Shown: piece by piece, positions 2,847 through 62,077 of the stretch
Layout of the letters: every line of letters starts with the position of its first letter
Numbering within the stretch: position 1 is the stretch's first letter
Virus record (IMG/VR): IMGVR_UViG_3300036861_000916
Span: 1-62,077 of that record
DNA: 62,077 nucleotides
Origin: a virus
Direction: 5' to 3' (one strand)
Notes under the pieces: generated by a model
Databases searched by the model: none
What the model was told of the DNA's origin: nothing
What the model saw: only the letters and a program-made list of their open reading frames with translations
Position numbers and translations under genes: made by a program

Positions 2847-3347
2847 GTGGCTTATACCGAGGCGCAGATCCGCGAGTTGATCGTTCGGTTCACGCAGGCG
2901 GACCGGCAGCCGATACTCACGGACACCGAGATCGACAACCTCGTCGCGCGCTCGAAGCGGCAGGACTCTTCGCGCCGCCCGCCGACCGACGCCGCGTGGG
3001 AGCCCACATGGAACATCAACGCCGCCGTCGCTGTCGGCTGGGAGTTGAAGGCGGCGCTCGTCGTGACGGACTTCGACGTCCGCAGCGCCGACCAGGACCT
3101 GAAGCGTAGCCAGATGCACGAGATGTGCCTGCGCCAGGCGGACCGGTGGAAGCGCCGGGTGACGGACAGCGCGCAGCTCGAGGGCAGCCTGCGCCGGAAC
3201 CTGCCGGCGGGCGTGTTCTCCAACGCGAACGACGAGCTGTGGGACGTTGCCGGCGGCTACGGTCCCGTCTGCCGCTGTGGAAATCCCTCCTGCTGCCTCT
3301 GCGGCAGTGGCGAGGCGTCACCAGGCGTTCGTTGGGTAGACGACTAG
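2847..3347 (+). CDS. hypothetical protein (possible head-tail connector component), Cys-rich C-terminus
   Basis: 166-aa ORF, GGAGGGG upstream; position upstream of adaptor genes. Confidence 0.5.
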   Translation: MAYTEAQIRELIVRFTQADRQPILTDTEIDNLVARSKRQDSSRRPPTDAAWEPTWNINAAVAVGWELKAALVVTDFDVRSADQDLKRSQMHEMCLRQADRWKRRVTDSAQLEGSLRRNLPAGVFSNANDELWDVAGGYGPVCRCGNPSCCLCGSGEASPGVRWVDD

Positions 3348-8690: not shown

Positions 8691-8794
8691 GTTCGCTTCG
8701 TCTCGGCTCGGCTCGCTTCGACTCGGCTCGCCTCGCTTCGGCTCGGGTCGCTTCGCTTCGGCTCGGGTCGCTTCGGGTCGGCGAGCGGTTCAGC
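8691..8794. repeat. pentanucleotide array (NNTCG)x18 plus GGCGAGCGGTT end motif
   Basis: 18 consecutive 5-mers ending in TCG (8691..8780) followed by a motif resembling the punctuation of the 34.8-35.4 kb array. Confidence 0.9.
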
Positions 8795-8865
8795 TTTGGA
8801 TGTGCTTTTAACAGCAGCAAGATCCAGGCCAATCCGTAGAGGCTCATGCAGATAGAGGGGACGGA

Positions 8866-18851: not shown

Positions 18852-18966
18852 GCCGGGCCGCGCCGTGCCCAGCCTAGCCGGGCCGCGCCTTGCCCCGCCT
18901 CGCCCATCCACGCCCTGCCGTGCCAAGCCACGCCCGGCCGTGCCATGCCTTGCCCTGCCCCGCCGT
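18852..18966. repeat. pentanucleotide array (GCCNN)x23
   Basis: 23 consecutive in-phase 5-mers, 22 GCCNN + 1 TCCNN; fills almost the whole 133-nt gap between convergent stops at 18834 and 18968. Confidence 0.9.
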
Positions 18967-18967
18967 G

Positions 18968-19603
18968 TTACTCCCAAGCGGCGACGCGGAACTTGCCGTA
19001 GGGTCCGCGGAAGGTTCCTAGACCGATCGCGCGGCCACCCTCCTCAAAGAGGTTCAGAATATCCTGCTCTTTCACCTCGCGGTTCGGGAACAGCGTCAGG
19101 TTGAAGCACAGCGCCCAGGGGAGCGGTAGGACCGGGCGCTCCTTCGGGTTCGGGATCCCCTTGTCGAGCCGCGCGACGTGGCGGGCGATGTAGATGCCGC
19201 TCATCGGGTCCCGGTCGTCAAGGAGCCGCCCGAACCGGACCGGCTCACCGGTGCTCGTGACCGTGCCGTCTTCATCGAATTCCACGCCCCGGACGATAGG
19301 AATGAAGTCGGGCTCGATCGAGACGAAGGACAGGCAAGCATTGCAGATGTCCTTAAACTTCCTCTTGTCCCGTAGTCTCTTCGGCGCGGAATTTGTGTTG
19401 TGGGCCGACAAGAACGACATAATGTTGGTTGCCGGCAGACCAATAGCTTTGCTGTCCCCGGGTTCGAAGTACAACTTTTGCCACGGTTCGAGCTTCGTGT
19501 TGTTGTCCCCTGGGTAGCGATCGAACATCATCTCTTTCAGCCCGCACAGGACTACCTTCCTTTCGATCAGGTCAGTCGGCTTGTTGATCTTTACCGTTCC
19601 CAT
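18968..19603 (-). CDS. unknown-function protein P1 (paralog of 35360..35989), C-terminal GLGxxRxxYG(K/R)F motif
   Basis: ATG 19603 with AAGGAGG 8 nt upstream; visibly lower GC than surroundings; the 73-codon N-terminal extension in the track ORF is repeat-array read-through. Confidence 0.65.
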   Translation of the reverse strand: MGTVKINKPTDLIERKVVLCGLKEMMFDRYPGDNNTKLEPWQKLYFEPGDSKAIGLPATNIMSFLSAHNTNSAPKRLRDKRKFKDICNACLSFVSIEPDFIPIVRGVEFDEDGTVTSTGEPVRFGRLLDDRDPMSGIYIARHVARLDKGIPNPKERPVLPLPWALCFNLTLFPNREVKEQDILNLFEEGGRAIGLGTFRGPYGKFRVAAWE

Positions 19604-19625
19604 GATATGCCTCCTTGAAGTGAGT

Positions 19626-19810
19626 GCCGCGCCGTGCCTCGCCACGCCATGCCGAGCCGGGCCGTGCCCAGCCACGCCTTGCCTTGCCCTGCCCAGCCCC
19701 GCCTCGCCCTGCCTTGCCCATCCTAGCCGCGCCTGGCCTGGCCACGCCGCGCCGAGCCTTGCCACGCCGCGCCCTGCCGCGCCTTTCCGTGCCGTGCCTT
19801 GCCGTGCCCG
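19626..19810. repeat. pentanucleotide array (GCCNN)x37
   Basis: 37 consecutive in-phase 5-mers, 35 GCCNN + 2 TCCNN; begins 8 nt upstream of the SD of 18968..19603. Confidence 0.9.
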
Positions 19811-19815
19811 GTACC

Positions 19816-19855
19816 AGTTCAAGGTGCAAAAGCTGTGCCATTTTCGAATTCAACT
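19816..19855. promoter_or_regulatory. pair of AGTT(C/G)AACT-type palindromes, 31 bp apart
   Basis: AGTTCAAGG 19816..19824 and AATTCAACT 19847..19855. Confidence 0.4.
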
Positions 19856-24429: not shown

Positions 24430-25626
24430 TCAGCTCGTGAACAGCCCCGGCTGGGCCGTGCGCTTGGCGACGAGCGGCAGGTATTCCGGGTTAAGCTCGA
24501 TGAGGATGGCGCGACGACCGAGAGACTGCGCCACCTGGCCGACAGTGCCGCTGCCGGCAAATGGATCCAGAACCGTGCAGGAGACGGGATCGGCGGCGGG
24601 GCAGTCACAGGTGGGCTGCCAGCCGGTCGTGGCCCATTGCGGCACGTACCCTCCGCCCCGCCAGCCTGGCGACTTGTGCGCCTGGTGCCCTTCGCTTATC
24701 TTTCGAGGGTCGCTGCCACTGACGTGCTTTCCCGCCATCGATTCCGCGACCGCCTGATCCTCCGCTGACTTCTCCACCACCCGCCGCCACGGAGCGCCAC
24801 ACGCCGGGCAGCAGCCGTGTTCGCTCGTGCCCGCGAGGATACAGCGAGCGGCGAGGGCGCGCGGGAAGGTGGCGAAGTGGGCTTCCGCGTACGCCTCGGT
24901 CGGGATGCGCCATACGGTGCGGAGATTGCGACCGGCGGGGTGAGTAAAGCTCTCCCTCTTCGACCCGAACCCGGCGTTAACCCCCTCCCGCAGATTTCCG
25001 CTCGGCGCGTGCCGCCCCGGCGAAACCGCGTACTCTTCCCAGCTAACCTCGGTCCCCGTCTTCTCCCTCACCGCGTCGCTATCGTAGAAGTAGCGCTCGC
25101 TCCGGCTCAGCAGGAACACATACTCGTGTGCCGTCGTCGGGCGATCGCTGACGCTCTCCGGCATCGGGTTCGTCTTGTCCCAGATGCAGCAGCTACGGAG
25201 AAACCAGCCATCTGCCTGGAGTGCGAACGCCACGCGCCAGGCTTGGCCGCAGAGGTCCTTGGGCTTGAGGCCGTCGCCGGCAGGCCGCATACCCGAGTTG
25301 TAGGCACGCCCCGTCCCGCCGTCCGAACTGCCGTAGTCACGGAAGCCGCCCTGCGAAGCGTAGCTGTCGCCCAGGTTCAGCCACAGCACGCCGTCCGGTC
25401 GCAGCACCCTTCGCACCTCGCGGAAGACGGCGACCATACTCGCCACCCACTCGTCCAGCGTCGGTTCTAGCCCTATCTCCTTGCCCTTCAGCGGGTGGCC
25501 GTCGGGCAGGTAGGACCTCAATGCCCAGTAAGGAGGAGAAGTTATGCAGCAGTGGACGCTATCCGCCGGGAGGGTGGGCAGCACCTCACGGCAGTCGCCC
25601 TGCAGCACGGTCAGTCTCTCATTCAT
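24430..25626 (-). CDS. DNA methyltransferase (N4-C / N6-A, PF01555-like)
   Basis: 398 aa; SPPYWALRSY catalytic motif near the N-terminus and C-terminal ...VLDPFAGSGTVGQVA... AdoMet motif. Confidence 0.85.
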   Translation of the reverse strand: MNERLTVLQGDCREVLPTLPADSVHCCITSPPYWALRSYLPDGHPLKGKEIGLEPTLDEWVASMVAVFREVRRVLRPDGVLWLNLGDSYASQGGFRDYGSSDGGTGRAYNSGMRPAGDGLKPKDLCGQAWRVAFALQADGWFLRSCCIWDKTNPMPESVSDRPTTAHEYVFLLSRSERYFYDSDAVREKTGTEVSWEEYAVSPGRHAPSGNLREGVNAGFGSKRESFTHPAGRNLRTVWRIPTEAYAEAHFATFPRALAARCILAGTSEHGCCPACGAPWRRVVEKSAEDQAVAESMAGKHVSGSDPRKISEGHQAHKSPGWRGGGYVPQWATTGWQPTCDCPAADPVSCTVLDPFAGSGTVGQVAQSLGRRAILIELNPEYLPLVAKRTAQPGLFTS

Positions 25627-32884: not shown

Positions 32885-33099
32885 CGATCTTCCCCTTCGC
32901 TGCTCGCGCCGGGAGCATTGGGTCGCTTCGGTCTCTGTCGCGTAAACAGGACGTTGCGTCCGCAGCTTGGACACAGGAGGGAACAGCTCGTCGCGTCTTC
33001 GTCAACGTGGCGAGCCAGCATATAGACCATGCCCTTCAGCTCAATGTCCAGGTCGCACGGCTCGCAGTAAGCAGTCCAGCGTCGCAAGTGAACCGTCAT
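32881..33099 (-). CDS. small zinc-ribbon protein
   Basis: ATG 33099 (ATGA coupling); CEPC ... CPSC. Confidence 0.45.
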   Translation of the reverse strand: MTVHLRRWTAYCEPCDLDIELKGMVYMLARHVDEDATSCSLLCPSCGRNVLFTRQRPKRPNAPGASSEGEDR

Positions 33100-33728
33100 T
33101 TCGCGTCGTCTCCTTCTCCGGTCGGGGCGGGCATCAATGCCTGTGCAGCAAGGGCGCTGCGCACGCGCTCCAATTGCCAGGTTGCTTCGGCGTCCCCGAC
33201 GGTCTCCCCGGCGACGTAGGAGGCGTCCCCGACGGTGTCCCCGGCGGCGCAGGCGGCGGCCCAGGCGGCGTTCCTGGCGGCGTTCCTGGCGGCGTTCCTG
33301 GCGGCGTAGGCGGCGGCCCAGGCGTCGGCCCTGGCGGCCCAGGCGTCGGCCCTGGCGTCGGCCCTGGCGGCCCATGCGGCGATCCTGGCGGCACGCAATT
33401 CCAAGTCGGTGGCCTCGCCTCGAGCCCATCGGCGCTTCACATCGAGCGCCGCCCAGGAGCGTGCGTCTGGCTCTCGGCCAGCCTTGCGTTCTTGCTGCAG
33501 CGCCCGTTCGGCGAAATCGCAGGCGAGTTCGTGCAGCCTCCGAGCCGGCAGGAACCCCTCACGGAAGAGCAGCCATAGCAGATGCGCAGGCGGTACGTCC
33601 AGGTCACAGACCTCCAGCGGCGTGAGGCTGGTCCGGCCTGCCGCTATCGCCTCCACTTCCTCGCGCTTGTAGCAGGGGCAGAAGCTCATCACCAGATCGA
33701 CGGTTACCTCGGTCAACAGTGCAGGCAT
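33096..33728 (-). CDS. Ala/Trp-rich repeat protein (AAR(N/D)A / AWAA repeats; immunity-protein-like)
   Basis: ATG 33728 with AAGGAG upstream; 12- and 24-nt DNA repeats at ~33255..33400 encode AARNAARNAARNAAWAAA... Confidence 0.5.
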   Translation of the reverse strand: MPALLTEVTVDLVMSFCPCYKREEVEAIAAGRTSLTPLEVCDLDVPPAHLLWLLFREGFLPARRLHELACDFAERALQQERKAGREPDARSWAALDVKRRWARGEATDLELRAARIAAWAARADARADAWAARADAWAAAYAARNAARNAARNAAWAAACAAGDTVGDASYVAGETVGDAEATWQLERVRSALAAQALMPAPTGEGDDAK

Positions 33729-33744
33729 CGTGTTCTCCTTGCTC

Positions 33745-34092
33745 CTATCGTATCGCCGACTGTGGCTTCGGCGCCTCAAGGCTCACGCCCAGCTCCGCCA
33801 GCCGGGCGGCGCACCGGGCGACCTCATCGGAGGCGGCACGGTAGCGGGCGAGAAGCGTGTCGACTTCCTCGCGGCGGCGGTCGCGGGCGGTGGCCAGGTC
33901 GCCGTCGTCGACGCCGCAAAAGGCGGCCAAGGAGCGGCGGCTGACGCGCAGGTAACGGCCGACCTTCACGGCGGTCAGCTTCTTCTCGCGGATCAGGCGA
34001 TAGGTGGCGTCGGCCCCGATTTTCAGGAACGCAGCCACTTCTCGCACCGTGAGAATGCCAGGTAACTCGCCGAGATCTCGTGTTTCCATCAC
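33745..34092 (-). CDS. excisionase-family / MerR-like HTH DNA-binding protein
   Basis: 115 aa; LTVREVAAFLKIGADATYRLIREKKLTAVKVGRYLRV. Confidence 0.65.
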   Translation of the reverse strand: MMETRDLGELPGILTVREVAAFLKIGADATYRLIREKKLTAVKVGRYLRVSRRSLAAFCGVDDGDLATARDRRREEVDTLLARYRAASDEVARCAARLAELGVSLEAPKPQSAIR

Positions 34093-34154
34093 ATTCCTTT
34101 CTGGTTGGGCGGGGAGGGCAGGTTCCCCGCGCAGGTTCCCCGCGCAGGTCGCTG

Positions 34155-34718
34155 TCAGGGCGTCTGCACGCTGCTGGCGTCGCTGGCGGACTCCTGAAGA
34201 GCGCCGATCTCGCTTTCGTCGGACTGAAGGCCGGCGGCTTCCTCCAGCTTTGCGATCCGGCTATCGTGTCGCGCGGCGATCTGCGCCATGATGTCCTGGC
34301 GTCGCTTCACCTCGTCGAACTGGGCCTGGAGGTTGTGCGTGATGAAGAGCAGGAGGTCAAGCTCTTGTCGCTCCTCGCGCTCCATCGGGCGCCGATCTAT
34401 CAACCCGCCTGTGAGTCCCGCCCTCTCGATCTTGGTGCCGGCTTGCTCGTGAAGGCCTTCGATCACGTCAGCAGCCTCTCGGGGGTGGACGATTCCGTAA
34501 CCCTCCCCGCGCACGCTGCGGATGAGCTTTCCCTCCGCCTTCAGCATCCTCATCTTCACGCCGTACTTCCCGGCCATGAGGGTCTGGACCTTGCGATAGG
34601 ACAAGCCTGACTTCGCTTCGATTTCCTGGCGGCTGTACTGGCGACCGATCTCGCCACCGGAAAAGACGTCGTGATAGACACGCTCCGCCTGGGTCCTGGT
34701 TTTCGCTTTCGCGTTCAC
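34155..34718 (-). CDS. putative winged-helix DNA-binding protein
   Basis: 187 aa, GTG start with AGGAAGG upstream; first gene downstream of the TCG super-array. Confidence 0.5.
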   Translation of the reverse strand: MNAKAKTRTQAERVYHDVFSGGEIGRQYSRQEIEAKSGLSYRKVQTLMAGKYGVKMRMLKAEGKLIRSVRGEGYGIVHPREAADVIEGLHEQAGTKIERAGLTGGLIDRRPMEREERQELDLLLFITHNLQAQFDEVKRRQDIMAQIAARHDSRIAKLEEAAGLQSDESEIGALQESASDASSVQTP

Positions 34719-34741
34719 TGTTCACCTTCCTGGTAGAAAGG

Positions 34742-34767
34742 GCAGGGGGCAGAAGTCTGCCCCCTGC
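34742..34767 (-). terminator. 9-bp GC hairpin at the distal end of the TCG super-array
   Basis: GCAGGGGGC / 8-nt loop / GCCCCCTGC; no strong T-tract. Confidence 0.4.
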
Positions 34768-34780
34768 GGTTCACGACTGG

Positions 34781-35364
34781 TCAGATCGCGTCGAGTCGGC
34801 TCGGATCGGATCGGTTCGATCCGGTTCGAACCGCGTCGCATCGACTCGGGTCGCTTCGGTTCGCATCGCGCCTATTCGTCGAACGTTTCGTCTCGCTTCG
34901 GTGCGGATCAGATCGTGTCACTCCGCGTCGCGTCAGATCGAAGCGAATCATTGAACGCGTCGCTTCGGTTCGGATCGCGTCGATTCGGTTCGAGTCGTTT
35001 CGGCTCGGCGAACGTTTCGTCTCGCCTCGCCTCGCCTCGCTTCGGCTCGGTTCGGCTCGGTTCGGCTCGCGTCGCTTCGCTTCGCCTCGCCTCGGCTCGC
35101 ATCGGTTCGTCGAGCGCTTCGGCTCGCGTCGCCTCGGCTCGCTTCGGGTCGGCTCGATTCGTCTCGGGTCGCTTCGCGTCGGCTCGGGTCGGCTCGTCGA
35201 ACGTTTCATCTCGCGTCGGCTCGCGTCGCGTCGCTTCGCTTCGGCTCGGATCGTTTCGAATCGCGTCGGGTCGTCGAGCGCTTCGGATCGGCTCGCCTCG
35301 AGTCAGTTCGCGCCGCGTCGCGGCGGATCGGTTCGACTCGGCTCGGCGAACGTTTCGCGTCAGG
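34781..35364. repeat. pentanucleotide super-array: six runs of (NNTCG/TCGNN)n separated by CGAACGTTTCG / CGAGCGCTTCGG punctuation
   Basis: Runs of 17, 10, 18, 16, 13 and 13 in-phase TCG pentamers; punctuation at ~34876, 35007, 35108, 35195, 35271, 35345; open in several frames on both strands. Confidence 0.9.
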
Positions 35365-35989
35365 CGGCTGCCTTCAGGCGGCCACAGCCTTCTGTGGCGA
35401 CCTCAGAGACCTTCGCATCGAATCGTCCGTAGAGGTCCCGGTAGGCACCGAGGCCGTAGAACCTGCCGAGCGCATGGATCCATCGCTCAAAGTCCTTCGG
35501 GTCGATCTTCTCGTCATTCACGAGGAGGAACGCTGTGCACTTCCAGGCATAAAAGATGGGGCGCGTCTGCAACACCATGCAAATCTTGCCCTGGCTCTTG
35601 CCATGGTTTGCCAGCCGTGTGTCCCGGAAACGATCGTCAGCCTTCAGTTCCTTGATGTCCTTCGGACCTTCGTGTTCGAGCGGGAAATAGAAACGATCGA
35701 AGCTGACATACCGCTCGACCAGTGTGCCCTTCTTCTCTTCGCGGGCCACGGAAACGATCGCCTGCTTCAGATTCATGGCCGGGATGACGACTTGGCCATC
35801 CTTCAAATGGAGATTAGGATCCCACTCAATGTCGGCGATCTTCTTGTAGATCTCCGGCGTCTTCTTCTGCTCCTGCATCCGCTGGAGTGCCTTCAGCTCC
35901 TGAACCTCCGGCCTGGTGCCGTCGGCGGGCACCTGGGTGCTCATCAGGTAAGGCATCTTTCCGGTCATCTCGATTTTGAACCCCTTCAT
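35360..35989 (-). CDS. unknown-function protein P2 (paralog of 18968..19603), C-terminal GLGxxRxxYGRF motif
   Basis: 209 aa, ATG with AAGGAGGAG upstream; lower GC; stop codon abuts the first punctuation motif of the TCG array. Confidence 0.65.
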   Translation of the reverse strand: MKGFKIEMTGKMPYLMSTQVPADGTRPEVQELKALQRMQEQKKTPEIYKKIADIEWDPNLHLKDGQVVIPAMNLKQAIVSVAREEKKGTLVERYVSFDRFYFPLEHEGPKDIKELKADDRFRDTRLANHGKSQGKICMVLQTRPIFYAWKCTAFLLVNDEKIDPKDFERWIHALGRFYGLGAYRDLYGRFDAKVSEVATEGCGRLKAAA

Positions 35990-36216
35990 AACTCCTCCTT
36001 CTTGTCACGCCGAAGATTAACCCCTCGGCACCGCTCTGTGCGGATGGTTGAAGTATACAGACGCAGCGCTGGAACTGCAAGGGGTCAGGCGAACTATTTC
36101 TCGCAGTGCAACGAGACAGGCTGAACTTTCGCTCGGAAGGGATTGCTTCGGTGGCTGTCAAACCGGTAAACTCGCGGCGGGCGCTTGAACCGCCGCACAA
36201 CCGAAGGAGGGCACAG

Positions 36217-37377
36217 TTGAAGGGTCATTTGAGAGAACGGTCGCCCGGTTGTTTTGAGTGTATCGTCAGCCTGGGGCGTGGCCCGGACGGCAAGCCGCGC
36301 CAGAAGAGTCGCACGGTGCGCGGCGGGGTCCGCCTCGCGCAGCGCACGCTCAACACTATGCTGGCGGATGTCGGCTCCGGCAAGCTGAAACCGGCTTGCG
36401 GTGAGACGGTTGCGAGCTACCTGGAGGCCTGGCTCGCGACAACGGGCGCCCTGCGCTTGAGCCCGAAGAGCCATCAGTCCTACTCGGGCGTCTTCCGCGT
36501 CTGGGTCATTCCCGAGCTGGGAGCCTTGCCGCTGGAGAAGTTGACCGCGCGCGACATCGAAGCGTGGCTGGTGCGTGCCTCAGCGCCCGGGGCGCGGCGG
36601 GACGGCAGGGCGGGCTCCCTCTCTCCAGGAAGTCTGCGGCACTACGTCAGGCTCCTGCGCGCGGCGCTGCAGGATGCCGTCCGGCAGGAGCGGCTGCTGC
36701 GGAACCCGTGCGACACCGCAGCGAAGCCCCGGGTTACGCACGAGGAGGTGACAGCGCTTTCGGTGGAGGAACTGCGGCGCCTCGTCCCGGCGACCAGCGG
36801 GCGGCTACGGATCGCGGTGCTGCTCGGTGGGATGTTGGGCTTGCGCGCTGGTGAGTGCGTCGCGTTGCAATGGGCCGACATCGATTTCGGCGCCGGCGTT
36901 GTCACCATCCGGCGCTCGCTGGAGGACACGAAGAAGCGCGGCCTGCAGTTCAAGCTGCCGAAGAGCGGCAAGACGCGCAAGCTGGCGCTGCCGGAGGCCC
37001 TGGCACGCGAGTTGCGGCGGCACAAGGGCGAGCAGGCGACGCAGCGGTTGCAGCTCGGCGACGGGTGGCAGAACAACGACCTGGTCCTCGCGCGCGAAGA
37101 CGGCTCCATCTGGTCCCGGGGCGCACTGTCGACGGCGTTCCGGGACCAGGCGCTTCGGCTTGGGCTGCCCACGACACGCTTCCACAGCCTGCGGCATTCG
37201 TGCGCCACCGCGCTCTTGGGCTGCGGGCAGGGTGCAGCCGTTGTGCAGGCCGTGCTGGGACACAGCACGCCCTCCTTCACGGTGCAGGTCTACGGCCACG
37301 CACTCCCGGAGCACATGCGGGAAGCGGCGCGTGTGATGGATCGCGCGATGGGAGATGCACTGGGGGCCGTTGGATGA
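36217..37377 (+). CDS. int: tyrosine recombinase / phage integrase
   Basis: TTG 36217 (GGAGGG upstream) in frame of track ORF 36106..37377; N-terminal SAM-like arm, C-terminal ...HSLRHSCAT...LGHS...Y catalytic pattern. Confidence 0.85.
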   Translation: MKGHLRERSPGCFECIVSLGRGPDGKPRQKSRTVRGGVRLAQRTLNTMLADVGSGKLKPACGETVASYLEAWLATTGALRLSPKSHQSYSGVFRVWVIPELGALPLEKLTARDIEAWLVRASAPGARRDGRAGSLSPGSLRHYVRLLRAALQDAVRQERLLRNPCDTAAKPRVTHEEVTALSVEELRRLVPATSGRLRIAVLLGGMLGLRAGECVALQWADIDFGAGVVTIRRSLEDTKKRGLQFKLPKSGKTRKLALPEALARELRRHKGEQATQRLQLGDGWQNNDLVLAREDGSIWSRGALSTAFRDQALRLGLPTTRFHSLRHSCATALLGCGQGAAVVQAVLGHSTPSFTVQVYGHALPEHMREAARVMDRAMGDALGAVG

Positions 37378-37558
37378 AAATTGGATGACGCGGAAATAGG
37401 GCGTATCGCAGCCACGAAAAAAGAAAAACTGCCTTAATCGAATCAGAGCCGAGCAGCCGCCGCCCGGCTCTCTTTTCGTCTCGTCCAGGCGTCCCGAGTT
37501 GCGACCGGACGGGCGGCCAGTTGGTTCATGTTGCGCTCATTCGCGGTGAGAATGTTGT

Positions 37559-38152
37559 TCAGCCATTGGATTGAAGGCGTGAAGGTTGCCCCAGAAGCCG
37601 CTCCCTGACCTGTTGGCGAATCTGCTCCGCCCGGGACGGTCCTGCCCGCCAGATCGGCAGCGTAGTTCGGCACTCCTGCTCATGTCCGTGGATGTCCAAG
37701 ACCGTGTCTGCGCACACCTGGCACAGGGAGGCCTGGCGTGCGGTGAGCTGCGTATGCTTGCAGGAATGGCACGTATGGCGAGTGCGGCCTAACGGGCCGA
37801 TCCAGTTGCAGCGCGGGCATTCATAGTAACGGTGAGCCGCTCGGGTGCTTTCAGTAAAGTGGTCATTCGGAAGCAAGTCAATCCAGCCGAGCAAGAGTGG
37901 GACCGGCTCGAACCATTCGCCATGCTGCCGGCAGAAGCGAAATGCCGTGTGGATCTCGTTCTCCAAATCATGATCGCCGGCTACCAGTCGAAGCACCTTC
38001 AACACCAGTGGGCTGCAGGCTTGGATGTGACGAAGGCGTGACGCTGGATGGACTGCCACTCCAATCTTGATGAGCCCGCCGTCGATCGGCTGAATGAAGT
38101 AGACGAAGCTGCCACACGTTCTGTGTCGCCTGACGTTGATGTCGATCTTCAT
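37559..38152 (-). CDS. T5orf172 / GIY-YIG-superfamily domain protein with C-terminal zinc ribbons
   Basis: 197 aa; FVYFIQPIDGGLIKIGVAVHPASRLRHIQ...E.EIHTAF...GEWF; then CPRC...CHSC. Confidence 0.6.
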   Translation of the reverse strand: MKIDINVRRHRTCGSFVYFIQPIDGGLIKIGVAVHPASRLRHIQACSPLVLKVLRLVAGDHDLENEIHTAFRFCRQHGEWFEPVPLLLGWIDLLPNDHFTESTRAAHRYYECPRCNWIGPLGRTRHTCHSCKHTQLTARQASLCQVCADTVLDIHGHEQECRTTLPIWRAGPSRAEQIRQQVRERLLGQPSRLQSNG

Positions 38153-38231
38153 GTTGAACCCCCAATGATAGTATATCGATTAGGGTTCAATGAAGCAAGC
38201 CCTTGGCTGCAACTCTCCTGCGCGCGTGAGA

Positions 38232-38260
38232 TTGACAGACGCGCGCCCGCTCGCTAAAAT
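38232..38260 (+). promoter_or_regulatory. near-consensus sigma-70 promoter
   Basis: TTGACA (38232..38237) - 17 nt - TAAAAT (38255..38260). Confidence 0.65.
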
Positions 38261-38413
38261 GGGAGCAGATGGAACTGCGATGGACGCAGCGGGCACGTGC
38301 CGGGCAGATGCCAATTCCCTCATAAGGTGCAGGCGGCCACTGCCGTGCGAATCGGCACCATCTGGGCAGCGGGCGGAGGCAACGATCGAGACGGTGCTTG
38401 GCGCCCGCGCATG

Positions 38414-38466
38414 GTTGGGGCGGCTGGAGCCTAACCGGTCACCGGGTTCGATTCCCGGCCCCGACC
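38414..38466 (+). ncRNA. tRNA-like minihelix 1 (acceptor + one arm + T-arm; no D-arm)
   Basis: GTTGGGG/CCCCGAC acceptor, CCGGG-TTCGATT-CCCGG T-arm, single GCTGG-AGCCTAA-CCGGT arm; only 53 nt. Confidence 0.4.
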
Positions 38467-38476
38467 GTTCGGGCAA

Positions 38477-38545
38477 TGCCCCGTAGCTCGCAAAGGGACG
38501 AGCACCGCGACGGCGGAGGGGCGGGTTCGACTCCCGCCGGGGCCG
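38477..38545 (+). ncRNA. tRNA-like module 2 (normal D- and T-arms, anticodon arm replaced by a 4-bp/4-nt hairpin)
   Basis: GCCCCG/CGGGGC acceptor, TA-GCTC...GAGC D-arm, GCGGG-TTCGACT-CCCGC T-arm, but only 17 nt between the D and T arms. Confidence 0.4.
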
Positions 38546-38561
38546 CTTGCCCGATACTACC

Positions 38562-38633
38562 TTTGGCCTGGTGTAATGGGTAACACGCCCGGCACTGAAC
38601 CGGGAGACGGAGGTTCGAGGCCTCCGGCCAGAC
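38562..38633 (+). tRNA. tRNA-Gln(CUG)-like, with A instead of U at position 33
   Basis: 72-nt cloverleaf folded by hand: TTTGGCC/GGCCAGA acceptor (U1-A72 as in bacterial tRNA-Gln), GTGT/ACAC D, CCCGG-CACTGAA-CCGGG anticodon arm, GGAGG-TTCGAGG-CCTCC T-arm. Confidence 0.6.
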
Positions 38634-38674
38634 CCGAACCCAGATTGATGAGCCGCCGGTAGCAGAGGCGGACG

Positions 38675-38714
38675 GCGGGCGGAGGCAACGGTCGAGAGAC
38701 CGTCCTCCGCCCGC
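38675..38714. terminator. strong hairpin between convergent ncRNA unit and minus-strand gene
   Basis: GCGGGCGGAGG (38675..38685) pairs with CCTCCGCCCGC (38704..38714); followed by TGCTGTTT. Confidence 0.65.
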
Positions 38715-38720
38715 TGCTGT

Positions 38721-39062
38721 TTACTCCGTCCGACCGGGCCGGGGCAGACGCCCTTTCAGTCGCCGCTGCTCCTCCTTTGCCTCCTCCAGGAGCCGCTCCA
38801 GCTCCTCTGTTCGACGCTCCAGCTCCTGGCGCTCCCTGTCCTGCTCCAGCGTCCAGGCTCTGGCCTCCGCGACGGCTGGCCTCACCGCCGCATCGAAGAG
38901 CCCATCGAGGTAGGCGCTGTAGCTCAGTCCCAAGTGCTTCGCATAGGCCCGTAGATCGGCGACATCCTCATGATGGAGTATCGCCTCTGCATGTGCGGTA
39001 ACGCCCAGGAACGGCTCGCCTTTCTCGTCCGTCCCCAGAACTTCTCTCGGTTTTCCTCGCAT
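38721..39062 (-). CDS. hypothetical coiled-coil protein
   Basis: ATG 39062 with AAGGAGAGAAAG upstream, in frame of track ORF 38721..39275. Confidence 0.45.
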   Translation of the reverse strand: MRGKPREVLGTDEKGEPFLGVTAHAEAILHHEDVADLRAYAKHLGLSYSAYLDGLFDAAVRPAVAEARAWTLEQDRERQELERRTEELERLLEEAKEEQRRLKGRLPRPGRTE

Positions 39063-39243
39063 CTTTCTCTCCTTCGTGAGAGCTAACTCCAGTGCTGCGG
39101 AAGGGTAGCACCCTTCGGTTAACCGAAGGGTAGCAGGAAGCGTGCCAACTTCAACATCGCGTCGTAACCGGAAATGGTGATTGACACGACTGACATAGAT
39201 TCTCGGTCGGTTGGGGCAAATGCGGGAGGGTGGCGCGGTAGCG

Positions 39244-40053
39244 TCAGCGATCGGCGCCGGTCGCGGGGACACCAAGGGCCTTGCGGATCCGGCGCAGCGC
39301 CCGCCGCTCGATGAGTGCCACGCGCTGTGGAGAGCAGCATACCGCCCTCGCTATCTCGCGGCACGTCTGCCGATCCTCATAGGGTGCGAGTCCATACCGG
39401 CGGAGGAGGAGGTCCCGCTCGCGCTCGCACAGCACGGAGAGAGCGCGGTCGCATAGAAGGGCGTCGGTTACGGCTTCATCGATCGGGGGATCGTCGGAGG
39501 GGAGCACGTCGATCAGTGGGAGGCCCTCGTTGTCATCGCTCGCCGAGGTGCTCGCCTCGAACGGTATCGCCTCCTGGGGCAATGCGCGGAGCCAGGCGAC
39601 CCGCTCCTCCGTCCAGTCCAGCTCGCGGGCGATCTCCTCGTCCGAGGGCGCGCGGCCCTCTCTCGCCTCTAGTTGCCGGACCGTGGCAGTGACCTGGCGA
39701 AGGGCCTTCTGGGCGCCAAACGAGAGCCGGATGCTCCGGGAGTGTCTGTCCATCGCCTGGTAGAGAGTATTCACGATCGAGTGATGCGCGTATGTCGCGA
39801 GCCGTGCGCCCTTTGCGGGATCGAAGCCGACCAGCGTGCGCAGGAACGCCAGTCGCGCCTCCTGGAGGGCGTCATCCGGATCCAGGAAGCTTGCGTGGAT
39901 CCGACCTGCGAGTTGGCGGATGAGGCGATGGTGTGCGGCTACGAGCCTGCGCGACGCCTCCGCCGGGTCCACATCGTGGCGCTTGCCCTGCACGCACAGG
40001 CAGAGCATGACTTCCTCTTCGCGGCTCATCCGCTCCGTCTCCATCGCCATCAC
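39244..40053 (-). CDS. sigma-70-family RNA polymerase sigma factor (group 3-like; regions 2, 3 and 4)
   Basis: 269 aa; ...DDALQEARLAFLRTLVGFDP.KG.RLATYA...; C-terminal ...RQTCREIARAVCCSPQRVALIERRALRRIR region 4 HTH. Confidence 0.85.
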   Translation of the reverse strand: MMAMETERMSREEEVMLCLCVQGKRHDVDPAEASRRLVAAHHRLIRQLAGRIHASFLDPDDALQEARLAFLRTLVGFDPAKGARLATYAHHSIVNTLYQAMDRHSRSIRLSFGAQKALRQVTATVRQLEAREGRAPSDEEIARELDWTEERVAWLRALPQEAIPFEASTSASDDNEGLPLIDVLPSDDPPIDEAVTDALLCDRALSVLCERERDLLLRRYGLAPYEDRQTCREIARAVCCSPQRVALIERRALRRIRKALGVPATGADR

Positions 40054-40399
40054 CGCGCTCCTCCTCGCAGTTCAACGCTCGTGCGGCACGAAGAAAGAGA
40101 AATTCCGGTTTTGTCGCTGTAAGCCGAGACCGGAAACTCGTCTCTACACACCTTCGCCACTGACGGCCCGAGGGAAAGCAGGCTAGGTGGGCACCCGCAA
40201 TGTCGTTCTCCCTGCCACGGGAAGGCCGTTCAGTTACTGCATTGGCTAGTCAGCAAGTTTCCCTTGCAGCTCTTCCGTTGGCACGGGAGCCATTGCAAGC
40301 CGCGGGGATTTATCCCCGGCGGTCACTGACGCTAACACGTCTCAGGCTCCATTTTAGCATGCAAGATGCGAGTTGAACAGATCGCAAAGAGATGTAGAC

Positions 40400-40428
40400 T
40401 TGCATGAAAACCGATGCGCGTGTATCAT
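40400..40428 (+). promoter_or_regulatory. sigma-70-like promoter for the lysis/packaging operon
   Basis: TTGCAT (40400..40405) - 17 nt - TATCAT (40423..40428); AGTTGAACA palindrome at 40371..40379 upstream. Confidence 0.5.
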
Positions 40429-40466
40429 GAAGAAGATCAACATCCGAATTCGACGAAGGAGGCAAC

Positions 40467-40883
40467 TTGAGGTTGGCATCGACGTTCTGGACGAGCAAAA
40501 CGACCTGGGTGGCGCTGGCCGCAATCGGCATGGCGCTGGTGGACGCCGCGGCGAAAGGAGCGCTCTCATGGCAGCAGGGCCTGGTCATCCTCGTGGCGAT
40601 GCTGGGAGCCACGATCCGGGACACGCTGGCGAAGAACGGCGAGGACGCTCTGCTCCAAGAGGACGCTTGCAGCCGGATGGTGCTGATGGCGGCGGGAGCG
40701 GCCACGACCGCGGAAAGCATGGCAGAGGCGATGGCCGTGCTGCTGCGGGCGTCGAAGCAGAACGCCGAGGTGATACCGCCCTCGTCGGCCCACTTTCTAG
40801 TCGCGGAGGAACCGGTGAGGTCGGAAGTAGCGACGGAGGAGGAGATGGATGGAGAAGCGGATCGCGAGGAGGCCCTGCCGTGA
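40467..40883 (+). CDS. holin-like membrane protein
   Basis: 138 aa, TTG with GAAGGAGG upstream; ...TFWTSKTTWVALAAIGMALVDAAAKGALSWQQGLVILVAMLGA... resembles r1t-type holins; acidic tail. Confidence 0.5.
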   Translation: MRLASTFWTSKTTWVALAAIGMALVDAAAKGALSWQQGLVILVAMLGATIRDTLAKNGEDALLQEDACSRMVLMAAGAATTAESMAEAMAVLLRASKQNAEVIPPSSAHFLVAEEPVRSEVATEEEMDGEADREEALP

Positions 40884-41365
40884 AACTTGTTGAGGTCCTG
40901 GAGAAGTTCGCCCTCGAGCACGCCCGAGCGGCTGTCAGCGTTCCCGAGCTCGTCATCCAGGTCCTGGGTGCGGCGGCGGGTGGCGAGGGCCTGCGCCGCG
41001 GCGTGGAGCGGATCCTGACGAAGCGCTTTGCCGCCGAGCAGGGCAGGGCGGGCGCGATGTCGCTTTCGCGTGCGCTCACGAAGCAAATTGACGCCGTCTT
41101 CGAGCAGGAGATGCGCGGCGTCACCGCGGAGCAGAGGCGCGCGCTCGTCCGCCCGCTGGCCGAGGCCGCGGCGCTCCATCTCGTCGAAGCGGCCCACGCG
41201 CTGGCGGATTACGTCGACAAGGCCGCTGACGTGAACGTTGCCAAGGAGCTGCGGGACACGTCGAAGCTCGTGGCGGCGAGACGGGCGAGGCTGGAGGTGG
41301 ACCAACGGCTGGACCGTGCGCTGCTGGCCGCTTCGAGGGCGGTCAGCGGAGGAGAAACGCCGTGA
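40880..41365 (+). CDS. hypothetical helical protein
   Basis: GTG 40880 (GTGA coupling) in frame of the over-long track ORF 40373..41365. Confidence 0.45.
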   Translation: MKLVEVLEKFALEHARAAVSVPELVIQVLGAAAGGEGLRRGVERILTKRFAAEQGRAGAMSLSRALTKQIDAVFEQEMRGVTAEQRRALVRPLAEAAALHLVEAAHALADYVDKAADVNVAKELRDTSKLVAARRARLEVDQRLDRALLAASRAVSGGETP

Positions 41366-41589
41366 TCTCGGAGGCACCCTCGAAGCGGAACGGCACCGGC
41401 GGCTACTGGTTCCTATCGCAGCCGGCCACGGGATGCCTGTGGCGGATCCAGACGCATGACGGCAGGGTGTGGGTCCTGGATTGGCAGCCCCCTCTGCGGT
41501 GGGTGGAGATCCCGCGCGACCGGTTCGCATGCCAGGCCAGGGACTATGATGTGATCGACCTCCACTCGTGCCCCGAGGTAGCGCTGTGA
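41362..41589 (+). CDS. hypothetical protein
   Basis: 75-aa ORF, GTGA coupling. Confidence 0.4.
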   Translation: MISEAPSKRNGTGGYWFLSQPATGCLWRIQTHDGRVWVLDWQPPLRWVEIPRDRFACQARDYDVIDLHSCPEVAL

Positions 41590-41804
41590 TATCGTTTCTG
41601 ATCTACTGTTTCATAGAGGCCAAACTCTGGTTCTTCCGGCGCTTCCTCTGCCGCGACAAAGTCGATGCGTTTTGGTTTACGGGAGAGATCGAAGCGATCA
41701 CTACGGGCCGCTCGCGCGAGTACGTCCGCGAGAAAGCCTTGCAGGTTCTGCGCGAGGAGATCGAGCGACGGGGCGAGCGGATGATCGAAGGCGGTCGAGA
41801 ATGA
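41586..41804 (+). CDS. hypothetical protein with hydrophobic N-terminus
   Basis: GTG 41586 (GTGA coupling) in frame of track ORF 41568..41804; directly upstream of the endolysin. Confidence 0.35.
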   Translation: MISFLIYCFIEAKLWFFRRFLCRDKVDAFWFTGEIEAITTGRSREYVREKALQVLREEIERRGERMIEGGRE

Positions 41805-42544
41805 GGAAGATCGACACGCTGGTCATACACCATTCCGCCGGCGCCTCCGGATCGGTCGATCAGTTCCGCCGTGAGCACATGGCGCGCGGGTGGGCTGATA
41901 TCGGTTACCACGCCGTTTGCGGTAACGGCCGGGGGATGGGGGATGGCTGGATCGGCCACGGTCGCGCCGACGAGAAACAGGGGGCTGCCGTTTTCGGAGC
42001 GAACGCAGGGAAGCTCCACGTCTGCCTCGTCGGGAACTTCCACAAACCGGAGCCCGGCTTCACCGGCCCGCCGACGCGTGCGCAGCTTGACGCTCTCGGC
42101 GGCTGGCTCTTGCAGAAGTCCTGGCTCTATGCCGGCCGCTTTGCTCGCCCGCCGCTGGAGGTAGCCGGGCACAAAGAGGTGGCGCTGCCGACGCACCCGA
42201 CGGCCTGCCCTGGCAGCGAGTTCCCCATCAAGCTCGTGCGCCGCTGGTTCGAGAAGACGGCGGTCATCTGGAAGCCCGACGCCAAGGCTGCGGTCTCGCT
42301 CGGCAGCTTCATTGCCAACGGCGGCCTCTGGCTGCCCGAGAACACGGAGCGCGTCGTGGAGCACGGTGGCCGTCGCCTTCGGGTGCTGCGGGCTGACGGC
42401 GAAGAGGCCGAGGTGCCGATGGAGGACTGTACGATCCACGCGGGGCAGACGTGGGTGCGGCTGCGGGCGCTGTGCGGGGCGCTGGGCTGCACCGTGAGCG
42501 TGGACGACGACGGGATCGTCGTGAAGGTGGACGGGAGGGAATAA
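41801..42544 (+). CDS. N-acetylmuramoyl-L-alanine amidase endolysin (Amidase_2/PGRP fold) with C-terminal domain
   Basis: ATG 41801 (ATGA coupling); IDTLVIHHSAG...DIGYH...GHKE...TACPG zinc-amidase motifs. Confidence 0.8.
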   Translation: MRKIDTLVIHHSAGASGSVDQFRREHMARGWADIGYHAVCGNGRGMGDGWIGHGRADEKQGAAVFGANAGKLHVCLVGNFHKPEPGFTGPPTRAQLDALGGWLLQKSWLYAGRFARPPLEVAGHKEVALPTHPTACPGSEFPIKLVRRWFEKTAVIWKPDAKAAVSLGSFIANGGLWLPENTERVVEHGGRRLRVLRADGEEAEVPMEDCTIHAGQTWVRLRALCGALGCTVSVDDDGIVVKVDGRE

Positions 42545-61124: not shown

Positions 61125-62077
61125 CGTCACCGCCCTCAACCAGCTAATCCAGACTGCCGGGGAGCACATCCTCCCGCAGGCGCCCACGGCCTCGGCGACG
61201 AAGGCCCTGCTGCGGATGGGCAATGCCCTCGTCGGTGGTGACGCCGATGGCTGCTACCTTGGGCTCAACGCGCCCAGTGGCTGGGTCGGCGACTACCTGC
61301 GCATTCAGCTCAACGCCGTTGATGTGCTCCGGCTCGACAGCCTCGGGAACCTCGGCGTTGGGGTCTCCGCCCTCTCGGGCTTCCGCATCCACGCCGAGGC
61401 CGACGGCAACTTCGACAACATGGTCCGTGTTAACAACGTTAACACGGGCAATGGTGCCGCCGCCGGCTCCTCGGTGCAGGTGCGCTGCGGGGGCACTGAC
61501 ACGGCCAGTGGTCGCCTAGCCGCGTGGGGGGGGAGTCACGCCTCAACCCTGCGGGCCAACCGGGTCAGCGTCGTTGCCAACTCGGACGCCACCGGTATCA
61601 CCCTGGAAGCCGACAACGCCTCGCAGGACATCCGATTCGCCGTCGCCACCCTTGGCGAACAGATGCGCCTCTCCAGTTCTGCAGAACTGTTGCTTGGCAC
61701 AACGTCCTCACTGGCGCGGCTCGCAGTCGTGGGCCGGGCGGATCAGATTCAGTGTGTGGTGAGAGGTTTCAGCACCCAGACGACACACCTCCAGGACTGG
61801 CAGACGAGTGGCGGGGCCGTTCTCGCGTACGTTCAGGGAGATGGCCCATGCTATTTCCCCCAGGCTGGCATTGGCGTTTTCGCTGCACAGGCCGGCGTTG
61901 GACTCTTCGTCACGGGCGGCGACACAGCGGCAGTGACCCAGGTTTTGCGTCAGTTGACGTCCCAGACGGGTCACCTGCTGGAGGCTCGTGACGACAGCAA
62001 CGGGAGCCTCTTCACCTTCACGAACATCGGTGATCTGACGTTTAACCGCCGCTCCTCGACGACAGGTGGGCGCCAGG
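61111..62077 (+). CDS. fibre-like structural protein, 5' part (continues through the junction to 408)
   Basis: ATG 61111 overlaps the previous gene by 14 nt; frame 1 read codon-by-codon has no stop up to the window end, so it is absent from the ORF track. Confidence 0.65.
   Translation, partial: MLRNDVTALNQLIQTAGEHILPQAPTASATKALLRMGNALVGGDADGCYLGLNAPSGWVGDYLRIQLNAVDVLRLDSLGNLGVGVSALSGFRIHAEADGNFDNMVRVNNVNTGNGAAAGSSVQVRCGGTDTASGRLAAWGGSHASTLRANRVSVVANSDATGITLEADNASQDIRFAVATLGEQMRLSSSAELLLGTTSSLARLAVVGRADQIQCVVRGFSTQTTHLQDWQTSGGAVLAYVQGDGPCYFPQAGIGVFAAQAGVGLFVTGGDTAAVTQVLRQLTSQTGHLLEARDDSNGSLFTFTNIGDLTFNRRSSTTGGRQ
61966..62077. repeat. terminal overlap, copy 2
   Basis: identical to 1..112. 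Confidence 0.95.

Follow-up and report, generated by a model that had tools for sequence, protein, structure and literature searches.

Background

What is a stretch of some 580 nt, built of pentamers with three fixed and two variable positions and lying directly behind a phage gene, there to do? The question is posed by positions 34781-35364 of a 62,077-nt viral sequence (hereafter the window, meaning the whole stretch of DNA that was analysed). In the original prediction, made from the letters alone, this stretch was taken to be a non-coding scaffold for the protein encoded next to it, with an RNA sponge, a nucleoprotein filament and a centromere- or iteron-like element all named as candidates. 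Here we present evidence that the array very probably comprises seven guide RNAs (vrRNAs) of a VIPR system, serving the adjacent RAMP protein and built on the constant triplet YGA.

VIPR was described in 2026 around Vipr, a minimal RAMP protein of ~20 kDa (bioRxiv 10.64898/2026.04.26.720920). According to the text of that preprint, a vrRNA consists of 9-16 YNNGG repeats and a 3' tail, with GGY constant and NN hypervariable, and the loci include an accessory gene, vap, whose family is predicted to bind DNA (10.64898/2026.04.26.720920). The NN dinucleotides are reported there to recognise dsDNA with one target base skipped per repeat, and phages to use the system against competing phages and satellites, by repression; Vipr was shown to co-purify with its repeat RNA, and no self-targeting was found (10.64898/2026.04.26.720920). 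Cryo-EM of the SUSP1 system revealed a helical filament with one protomer per repeat, in which H17 and D177 serve as the readers of G1 and R138 and W178 hold G2 in place, the pocket for Y3 being made up of E71, M72, R179, C173 and T175 (10.64898/2026.04.26.720927).

Results

Anatomy of the array

The pentamer periodicity that first drew attention to the locus is real. On the + strand, the array holds 95 TCG triplets, 74 of which are followed by another exactly 5 nt downstream, against 8.7 +/- 3.0 such pairs (maximum 19) in first-order Markov resamples; the remaining ~61 kb of the window has just 47. Read on the minus strand, 34784-35345 resolves into 103 pentamers with C in 94%, G in 100% and A in 92% of units at the first three positions, which carry 1.64, 2.00 and 1.53 bits of information, followed by two variable positions with 0.03 and 0.26 bits. 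Fifteen of the 16 possible NN dinucleotides are present, with an entropy near the maximum.

The units fall into seven in-phase runs of 19, 13 (degenerate), 10, 19, 16, 13 and 13 in + strand order. The original prediction had six, of 17, 10, 18, 16, 13 and 13 units; the runs themselves hold up and their number does not, the degenerate 13-unit run having been missed. Read with the gene, the order is the TGA stop of 35360-35989, CGCGAAACGTTCGC, and then runs of 13, 13, 16, 19, 10, 13 and 19 units. A 7-nt insert, CG[C/T]TC[G/A][A/C], stands ahead of each run and shifts the phase by +2, in line with the phase change predicted at each punctuation. The motif CGAACGTTTCG, said to occur four times, has three exact copies (at 34880, 35009 and 35347, with 0.07 expected), and the copy at 35197 is CGAACGTTTCA, with one mismatch; CGAGCGCTTCGG does occur twice, at 35110 and 35275. 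The array begins 2 nt past the TGA stop of the gene that it was said to abut, on the same strand, with a terminator-like hairpin at its far end. This hairpin was correctly placed; its stem had been given as 9 bp and is longer (Table 1). A terminator consensus scan passed over it because its U-tract is short.

Searches for other RNA and regulatory features gave little. On folding, the array RNA proved no richer in structure than shuffled sequences (z = -1.3), which fits a protein-coated single strand, and a structured 3' tail of ~40 nt, such as the SUSP1 pseudoknot, was absent. Rfam had no match in the array, its only find being a tRNA, and a sigma-70 scan returned no consensus promoter. There were no 20-40 nt direct repeats with spacers of the CRISPR kind, and the only RAMP-like genes were those for P1, encoded at 35360-35989, and its paralog P2.

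Could the array be an ordinary pentanucleotide microsatellite, or an artefact of assembly? Plain repeats of the (CGAGC)n type are common in genomes and make up most of the at least 120 matches to (CGANN)7CGA; true microsatellites, however, have an NN entropy of about 0-1 bit and one or two dinucleotide types, far from the diversity found here, and the separators are conserved. Furthermore, a separately assembled Logan contig that spans the array aligns to window 33278-41989 without a gap and differs at 1 of 8712 bases. The array is therefore no artefact of assembly, and the collapse that had been named as a possible refutation, of which no sign was seen, is unlikely. We give this explanation virtually no credence. 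Nearly all of the loci found in that (CGANN)7CGA genome scan were plain microsatellites, and a Vipr homolog accompanied the repeats only in contigs L128 and L052, where they read NNGAC.

The neighbouring proteins

The product of the gene directly upstream of the array, P1, matches phrog_4652 (1.7e-27), the family into which SUSP1 Vipr also falls. With the SUSP1 genome located as KT454805 and its Vipr as ALH47069, BLASTP aligned the two proteins over their full length (residues 1-201) at 25% identity and an E value of 1e-16. An AlphaFold2 model of P1, computed from a 43-sequence alignment, reached a pLDDT of 93.3 and a pTM of 0.86. The best 50 Foldseek PDB matches listed for this model were all chains of CRISPR effector complexes (type VII, Csm3, Cmr), the best at an E value of 6e-6 and a TM of about 0.5. 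On this modelling P1 is predicted to have a Cas7-type RAMP RNA-binding fold, with a G-loop, GLGAYRDLYGRF, and a long beta-hairpin at residues 122-146. Pfam has no family for P1 or P2, and phrog_4652 itself has no assigned function. A profile built from eight homologs recovers 2175 family members, and tblastn with P1 returned 124 phage records, with Felixounavirus, Mooglevirus, the Gordonia phages MakoManhole and Trine, and Mycobacterium phage LittleE among them.

On the far side of the hairpin lies a gene (34155-34718) whose product was compared by hhalign with the genes lying downstream of Vipr in LittleE, MakoManhole, Mijalis, Trine and contig L006. Because it matches this profile of Vipr-adjacent genes and shares with those of five other loci the motif GY[RG][IV]xxPxE, we assign it as a vap-like gene. 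The locus order thus appears to be vipr, seven guides, terminator, vap. A full-length homolog of SUSP1 Vipr with a RAMP fold, a pentamer array and a vap-like neighbour together identify the locus as VIPR.

Table 1. Features of the YGA locus and of the further VIPR elements in the window
Feature	Position	Strand	Basis or remarks
vipr gene (P1), 209 aa, minimal RAMP protein of the YGA clade	35360..35989	minus	phrog_4652; BLASTP to SUSP1 Vipr; AlphaFold2 and Foldseek
Leader constant element CGCGAAACGTTCGC, the first separator	35346..35359	minus	directly 3' of the stop codon
Candidate guide 1, 13 YGA-NN units	35281..35345	minus	
Candidate guide 2, 13 units	35209..35273	minus	separator CGCTCGA (35274-35280) ahead
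Candidate guide 3, 16 units	35117..35196	minus	TGAAA and separator CGTTCGA (35197-35208) ahead
Candidate guide 4, 19 units	35015..35109	minus	separator CGCTCGA (35110-35116) ahead
Candidate guide 5, 10 units	34958..35007	minus	separator CGTTCGC (35008-35014) ahead
Candidate guide 6, 13 units, degenerate (TGA, CGC and CGG variants)	34886..34950	minus	separator CGTTCAA (34951-34957) ahead
Candidate guide 7, 19 units	34784..34878	minus	separator CGTTCGA (34879-34885) ahead
Terminator-like hairpin, 11-bp GC stem, 4-nt loop, then CCUUUCU	34742..34767	minus	RNAfold; closes the vipr-array unit
vap-like accessory gene, 187 aa	34155..34718	minus	hhalign probability 89.6%, E 1.9e-6
Solitary YGA-NN guide, 18-19 units, 5' element GAACCGCTCGC	8693..8796	minus	antisense, between a structural gene and the tape-measure gene
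Second VIPR, canonical GGC-NN	18852..19810	minus	P2 (18968-19603) flanked by 37 units (19626-19810) and 23 units (18852-18966)

A clade with a recoded triplet

The constant triplet of the array is YGA, with NN, where the published one is GGY, with NN, and the two share only the middle G. The P1-clade members with readable contigs are five in number (the window, P0002, P0122, P0123 and P0124) and 42-62% identical to P1: all five carry YGA-NN arrays with the same 7-nt separator, so that the periodicity is kept in related genomes. In P0002, whose protein is 62% identical to P1, CGAAGCGTTCGC comes next, and then CGANN units with different NN. A profile of P1 and P0002 recovered P0121-P0124, at 41-45% identity in the alignment and 43-47% by BLASTP. 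The readable contigs of three of these (L162, L163 and L164) have YGA-NN arrays that mix CGA and TGA, with the separators TGTTCAA, TGCTCAA and TGATCAA, of the same 7-nt type as in the window, and L164 repeats the window's layout of vipr, seven guides, hairpin and a small gene, here of 194 aa.

Over 21 separators from six loci, the constant element reads YGA[A/C]N + YG[Y]TC[R][A/C/T]. From these alignments the punctuation appears to be a clade-wide conserved separator between individual guides, not just palindromic decoration, and the YGA triplet a property of the clade rather than a local oddity. The separator may also form a mini-hairpin, in which YGA would pair with TCR: the Y:R pair is compatible in 18 of the 21, both C:G and U:A occurring, with a stem of only 3-4 bp. 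In L163 the main guide array (1400-1860) lies upstream of vipr, so array position is fluid within the clade; the same contig has a single guide (3124-3174) after a 176-aa gene.

The clade is seen only in JGI and Logan assemblies. A search of IMG/VR by protein pattern found none of its members, and the metagenome search proposed with the original prediction, run with the separator plus four units on a collection without the window and P0002 contigs, yielded 32 short matches attributable to chance, none of them with an array or a Vipr. The VIPR survey of the preprint, by its text, mined NCBI NR (10.64898/2026.04.26.720920).

Changes in the protein accompany the changed triplet. Aligned and numbered after SUSP1, seven of eight GGY-type proteins keep H17 and D177, and all six P1-clade proteins have S and A at these positions. 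R138, which makes the G2 salt bridge, and R179 are invariant in both groups; W178 becomes Y or F in the P1 clade, and C173 an aromatic residue or His. Additionally, the P1 clade has 4-5 residues inserted in the thumb, with the motif DTRLANHG conserved. The most economical interpretation equates the invariant G of YGA with G2 and has G1 changed to Y and Y3 to A. The divergent paralog P2, which is of the GGC type, has neither H17 nor D177, so these two residues are not the sole route to G1 recognition.

The preprint text allows for a 'related consensus' and lists NNNGG, YNNNG and NNNNG as alternative repeats, all three of which retain G2 (10.64898/2026.04.26.720920). No YGA-type consensus is named in that text, figure S17 and the data files aside. 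In the published register of Y3 N4 N5 G1 G2, the array studied here would read A N N Y G: G2 is kept, as in the alternative repeats described there, and in contrast to them three positions are conserved, with the new identities Y1 and A3.

A third constant triplet, GAC, was observed in contigs L128 (5400-5650) and L052, the latter a contig of a Sedimentisphaerales MAG. There, NNGAC pentamer arrays lie behind the gene of a distant Vipr homolog, which scores E 1e-12 against the family HMM and has F at the R138 position and S and F at the H17 and D177 positions.

Other arrays in the same phage and in its relatives

The first and last 112 bp of the window overlap exactly (1-112 = 61966-62077), so the window is a complete circular or terminally redundant genome of ~61,965 bp; it has no host flank and is phage throughout. 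It encodes a terminase, portal, Mu F, capsid, integrase and excisionase-like HTH protein. The tyrosine integrase gene (36106-37377) is divergent from vipr; also present are a tRNA-Gln(CTG) at 38562-38635, a sigma-70-family gene at about 39244-40053 (Pfam matches, Logan gene call) and an N6/N4 DNA methylase gene (24430-25626). Tandem repeats with periods of 33, 21 and 12 nt at 33189-33392 lie inside an ORF on the minus strand (33096-33779, 227 aa, phrog_18326); they are Ala/Trp/Arg-rich (AWAARADA..., AARNAARN...) and unrelated to the pentamer arrays.

Four pentamer arrays occur in the window: that at 34784-35345 and others at 8693-8782, 18852-18966 and 19626-19810. The solitary YGA-NN array, for which no promoter was identified, has a counterpart at the same site, upstream of the tape-measure gene, in a near-identical phage (IMG/VR contig L009, 4787-4856). 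The flanks of the two are ~99% identical and TCG is kept, and every NN is different; the 18 units of the window face 14 in L009, a difference of 20 nt. To judge from this comparison, the replacement of NN is what a swapped guide looks like. Such complete NN turnover between 99%-identical flanks is incompatible with a coding repeat or with a fixed protein-binding iteron.

The flanking gene had been called paralogous, and the paralog is the gene for P2 on the minus strand, flanked by GGCNN arrays. P1 and P2 are distant paralogs that share a C-terminal GLGxxRxxYGxF motif, both matching phrog_4652. The P2 locus has no vap gene. Its arrays lack the 7-nt separators, and their units deviate only as GGAAA and GGATG, at units 4 and 17 of the upstream array and unit 12 of the downstream one; guide boundaries may lie there. 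ORF 18968-19822 of the program-made list, in which P2 runs on into its array, is an artefact.

Among relatives with GGY-type arrays, GGCNN units adjoin the Vipr homolog in LittleE, Trine, L006/L007 and L008, and GGTNN units in Citrobacter phage Mijalis, always on the gene strand, as in every locus examined. In Gordonia phage Trine (L003, 3585-3900), the annotated CDS gp40, of 267 aa, begins within the GGC-NN array; its first ~100 residues (GARSGLGAARHGTARRGKARLGKAW...) are translated repeats, and the real vap-like gene corresponds to the C-terminal ~165 aa.

These comparisons bear on the view that the array encodes an RS(E/D)P-type pentapeptide-repeat protein, which we consider extremely improbable. 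Long ORFs do cross the array (34915-35655 on the + strand, 34781-35209 on the minus strand), and two + strand frames run through it without a stop, but open frames are automatic because TCGNN and CGANN cannot form stop codons. The frames on the gene strand carry 2, 1 and 4 stops, and in relatives that have TGA units no frame of the gene strand stays open (8-10 stops in L163, 4-9 in L164). The solitary array, with its 20-nt indel and every NN changed between otherwise 99%-identical phages, speaks against a repeat protein as well, and gp40 of Trine merely starts inside its array. The array is non-coding, as originally supposed: the gene-strand stops, the turnover of NN and the closed frames of TGA-rich relatives agree.

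A second view is that the array acts as dsDNA and not as RNA, serving as an iteron, centromere or operator array to which P1 or the 187-aa neighbour binds. The separators contain the 6-bp palindromes AACGTT and AGCGCT, and the Vap family is predicted to bind DNA. On the other side stand the RNA-binding RAMP fold predicted for P1, a homolog that co-purifies with its repeat RNA, and arrays locked to the gene strand in every locus examined; full NN turnover between near-identical phages would be unexpected for an iteron, and a 5-bp unit is, we infer, very short for dsDNA recognition. We regard this view as very unlikely.

Target searches and the information content of the candidate guides

If the array consists of guides, targets may be sought for them. 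Within the phage genome, with skips of 0-3, no match rose above those of shuffled guides, the same outcome as the absence of self-targets stated in the text of the preprint (10.64898/2026.04.26.720920). For natural targets, exact-match searches with a 1-nt skip over part of IMG/VR, using the whole of guide 5 and 8-unit seeds of guides 7, 2 and 3, gave chance-level matches only, and extensions of the seed matches were at most 50% matching; the search had little power, being restricted to exact matches over part of IMG/VR. Comparison of NN composition with the codon positions of the phage's own genes fitted 'sense positions 2-3' (30 bits) and 'antisense positions 1-2' (25 bits) about equally.

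Might the array instead be a decoy or sponge RNA that binds the phage's own or a competitor's Vipr without guiding, or a decaying remnant? The lack of a target in those exact-match searches over part of IMG/VR would agree with this, as would the degenerate state of guide 6 and the GC-rich, fairly simple NN composition of guides 3 and 4. However, near-maximal NN entropy and the wholesale NN swap in sister phages point to selection on information content, for which a sponge has no use, and 10-19 units per guide is close to the published functional range of 9-16, which only two of the seven runs slightly exceed. We judge a decoy or remnant unlikely.

Neither the sponge nor the centromere/iteron proposed at the outset finds support. 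Nor are the variable bases mere spacers, as had been assumed: they are hypervariable between near-identical phages, and in characterised relatives they pair with target DNA. The units of triplet plus two bases would indeed be binding units for a dedicated neighbouring protein, by analogy with SUSP1, and the suggested nucleoprotein filament matches the published SUSP1 structures, with one protomer per pentamer.

Discussion

The interpretation of the array as guide RNAs suggests the following model, in which transcription, separator processing, filament formation and the skip rule at the YGA locus are inferred from homology. The seven vrRNAs would probably be co-transcribed with the vipr gene directly upstream, and the transcript cut or delimited at the 12-nt constant elements, each made of a last unit YGAMN and the separator YGYTCRM. 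By analogy with SUSP1, Vipr protomers would coat each guide, one per pentamer, with each pair of protomers hiding the constant triplet and leaving the two variable bases exposed. The NN dinucleotides would then jointly read a dsDNA target as NNx NNx..., one base being skipped each time, and the filament would silence genes of a competing phage or mobile element, aided by the downstream Vap-like protein.

The closest known counterpart is VIPR type II, represented by SUSP1 and a Pseudomonas fulva prophage. The two share a minimal RAMP protein of ~200 aa with full-length homology, gene-strand pentamers with three constant and two hypervariable positions in guides of about 10-19 units, a homologous small accessory gene, a phage-encoded location and the lack of self-targets. 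They differ in the triplet, YGA for GGY; in the protein, with S and A for H17 and D177 and a thumb insertion of 4-5 residues bearing DTRLANHG; in the parting of guides by a 12-nt constant element and not by a ~40-nt pseudoknotted 3' tail; and in gene order, vipr-array-terminator-vap here and vrRNA-vipr-vap-array there. Other VIPR types, as the preprint text notes, have other array architectures (10.64898/2026.04.26.720920).

The best structural matches of P1 are the Cas7 filaments of Class 1 CRISPR systems (Csm3, Cmr4, type VII Cas7), which are alike in RRM core, G-loop and thumb and, like VIPR, place one protomer on a fixed RNA step with periodic base flipping. The present locus differs from them in that CRISPR repeats and spacers are absent, as are further cas genes. 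The step also differs: 5 nt with three bases hidden in VIPR, 6 nt with one base flipped in Cas7, so that the information of a VIPR guide is non-contiguous. The description 'triplet + spacer' further evokes the binding sites of TRAP, which are tandem GAG/UAG triplets with 2-3 variable nt between them and one triplet per protein subunit. TRAP, however, has an unrelated fold, spacers that carry no information and 11 repeats, and it regulates host trp genes without DNA guiding.

What is left as novel is probably the YGA triplet with the protein changes that match it, the architecture of guides set apart by short separators, and the presence of a YGA system, a GGC system and a solitary guide in one phage. 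We propose, tentatively, as an idea that could well prove wrong, that YGA/NN is a separate, orthogonal VIPR 'alphabet', in which G1 has become Y and Y3 has become A by way of H17S, D177A, a remodelled pocket and the thumb insertion. One phage might then run two silencers that do not cross-talk, YGA and GGC, plus solitary guides, and the 12-nt separator might stand in for the pseudoknot tail as a new, minimal signal for processing or capping.

For annotation, the finding carries a warning that ORFs across such arrays are artefacts; three of them are called here, and in Trine gp40 the first ~100 codons are of this kind. VIPR has been proposed to be ancestral to the CRISPR RAMP effectors, and also to offer a programmable DNA binder of very small size. 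If the proposal made here is true, a clade with a changed protein-read triplet would show evolution of the 'constant' code between protein and RNA, and the YGA clade would be a candidate orthogonal protein/guide pair for multiplexed use. A single phage would, moreover, be able to carry two such systems together with a solitary guide.
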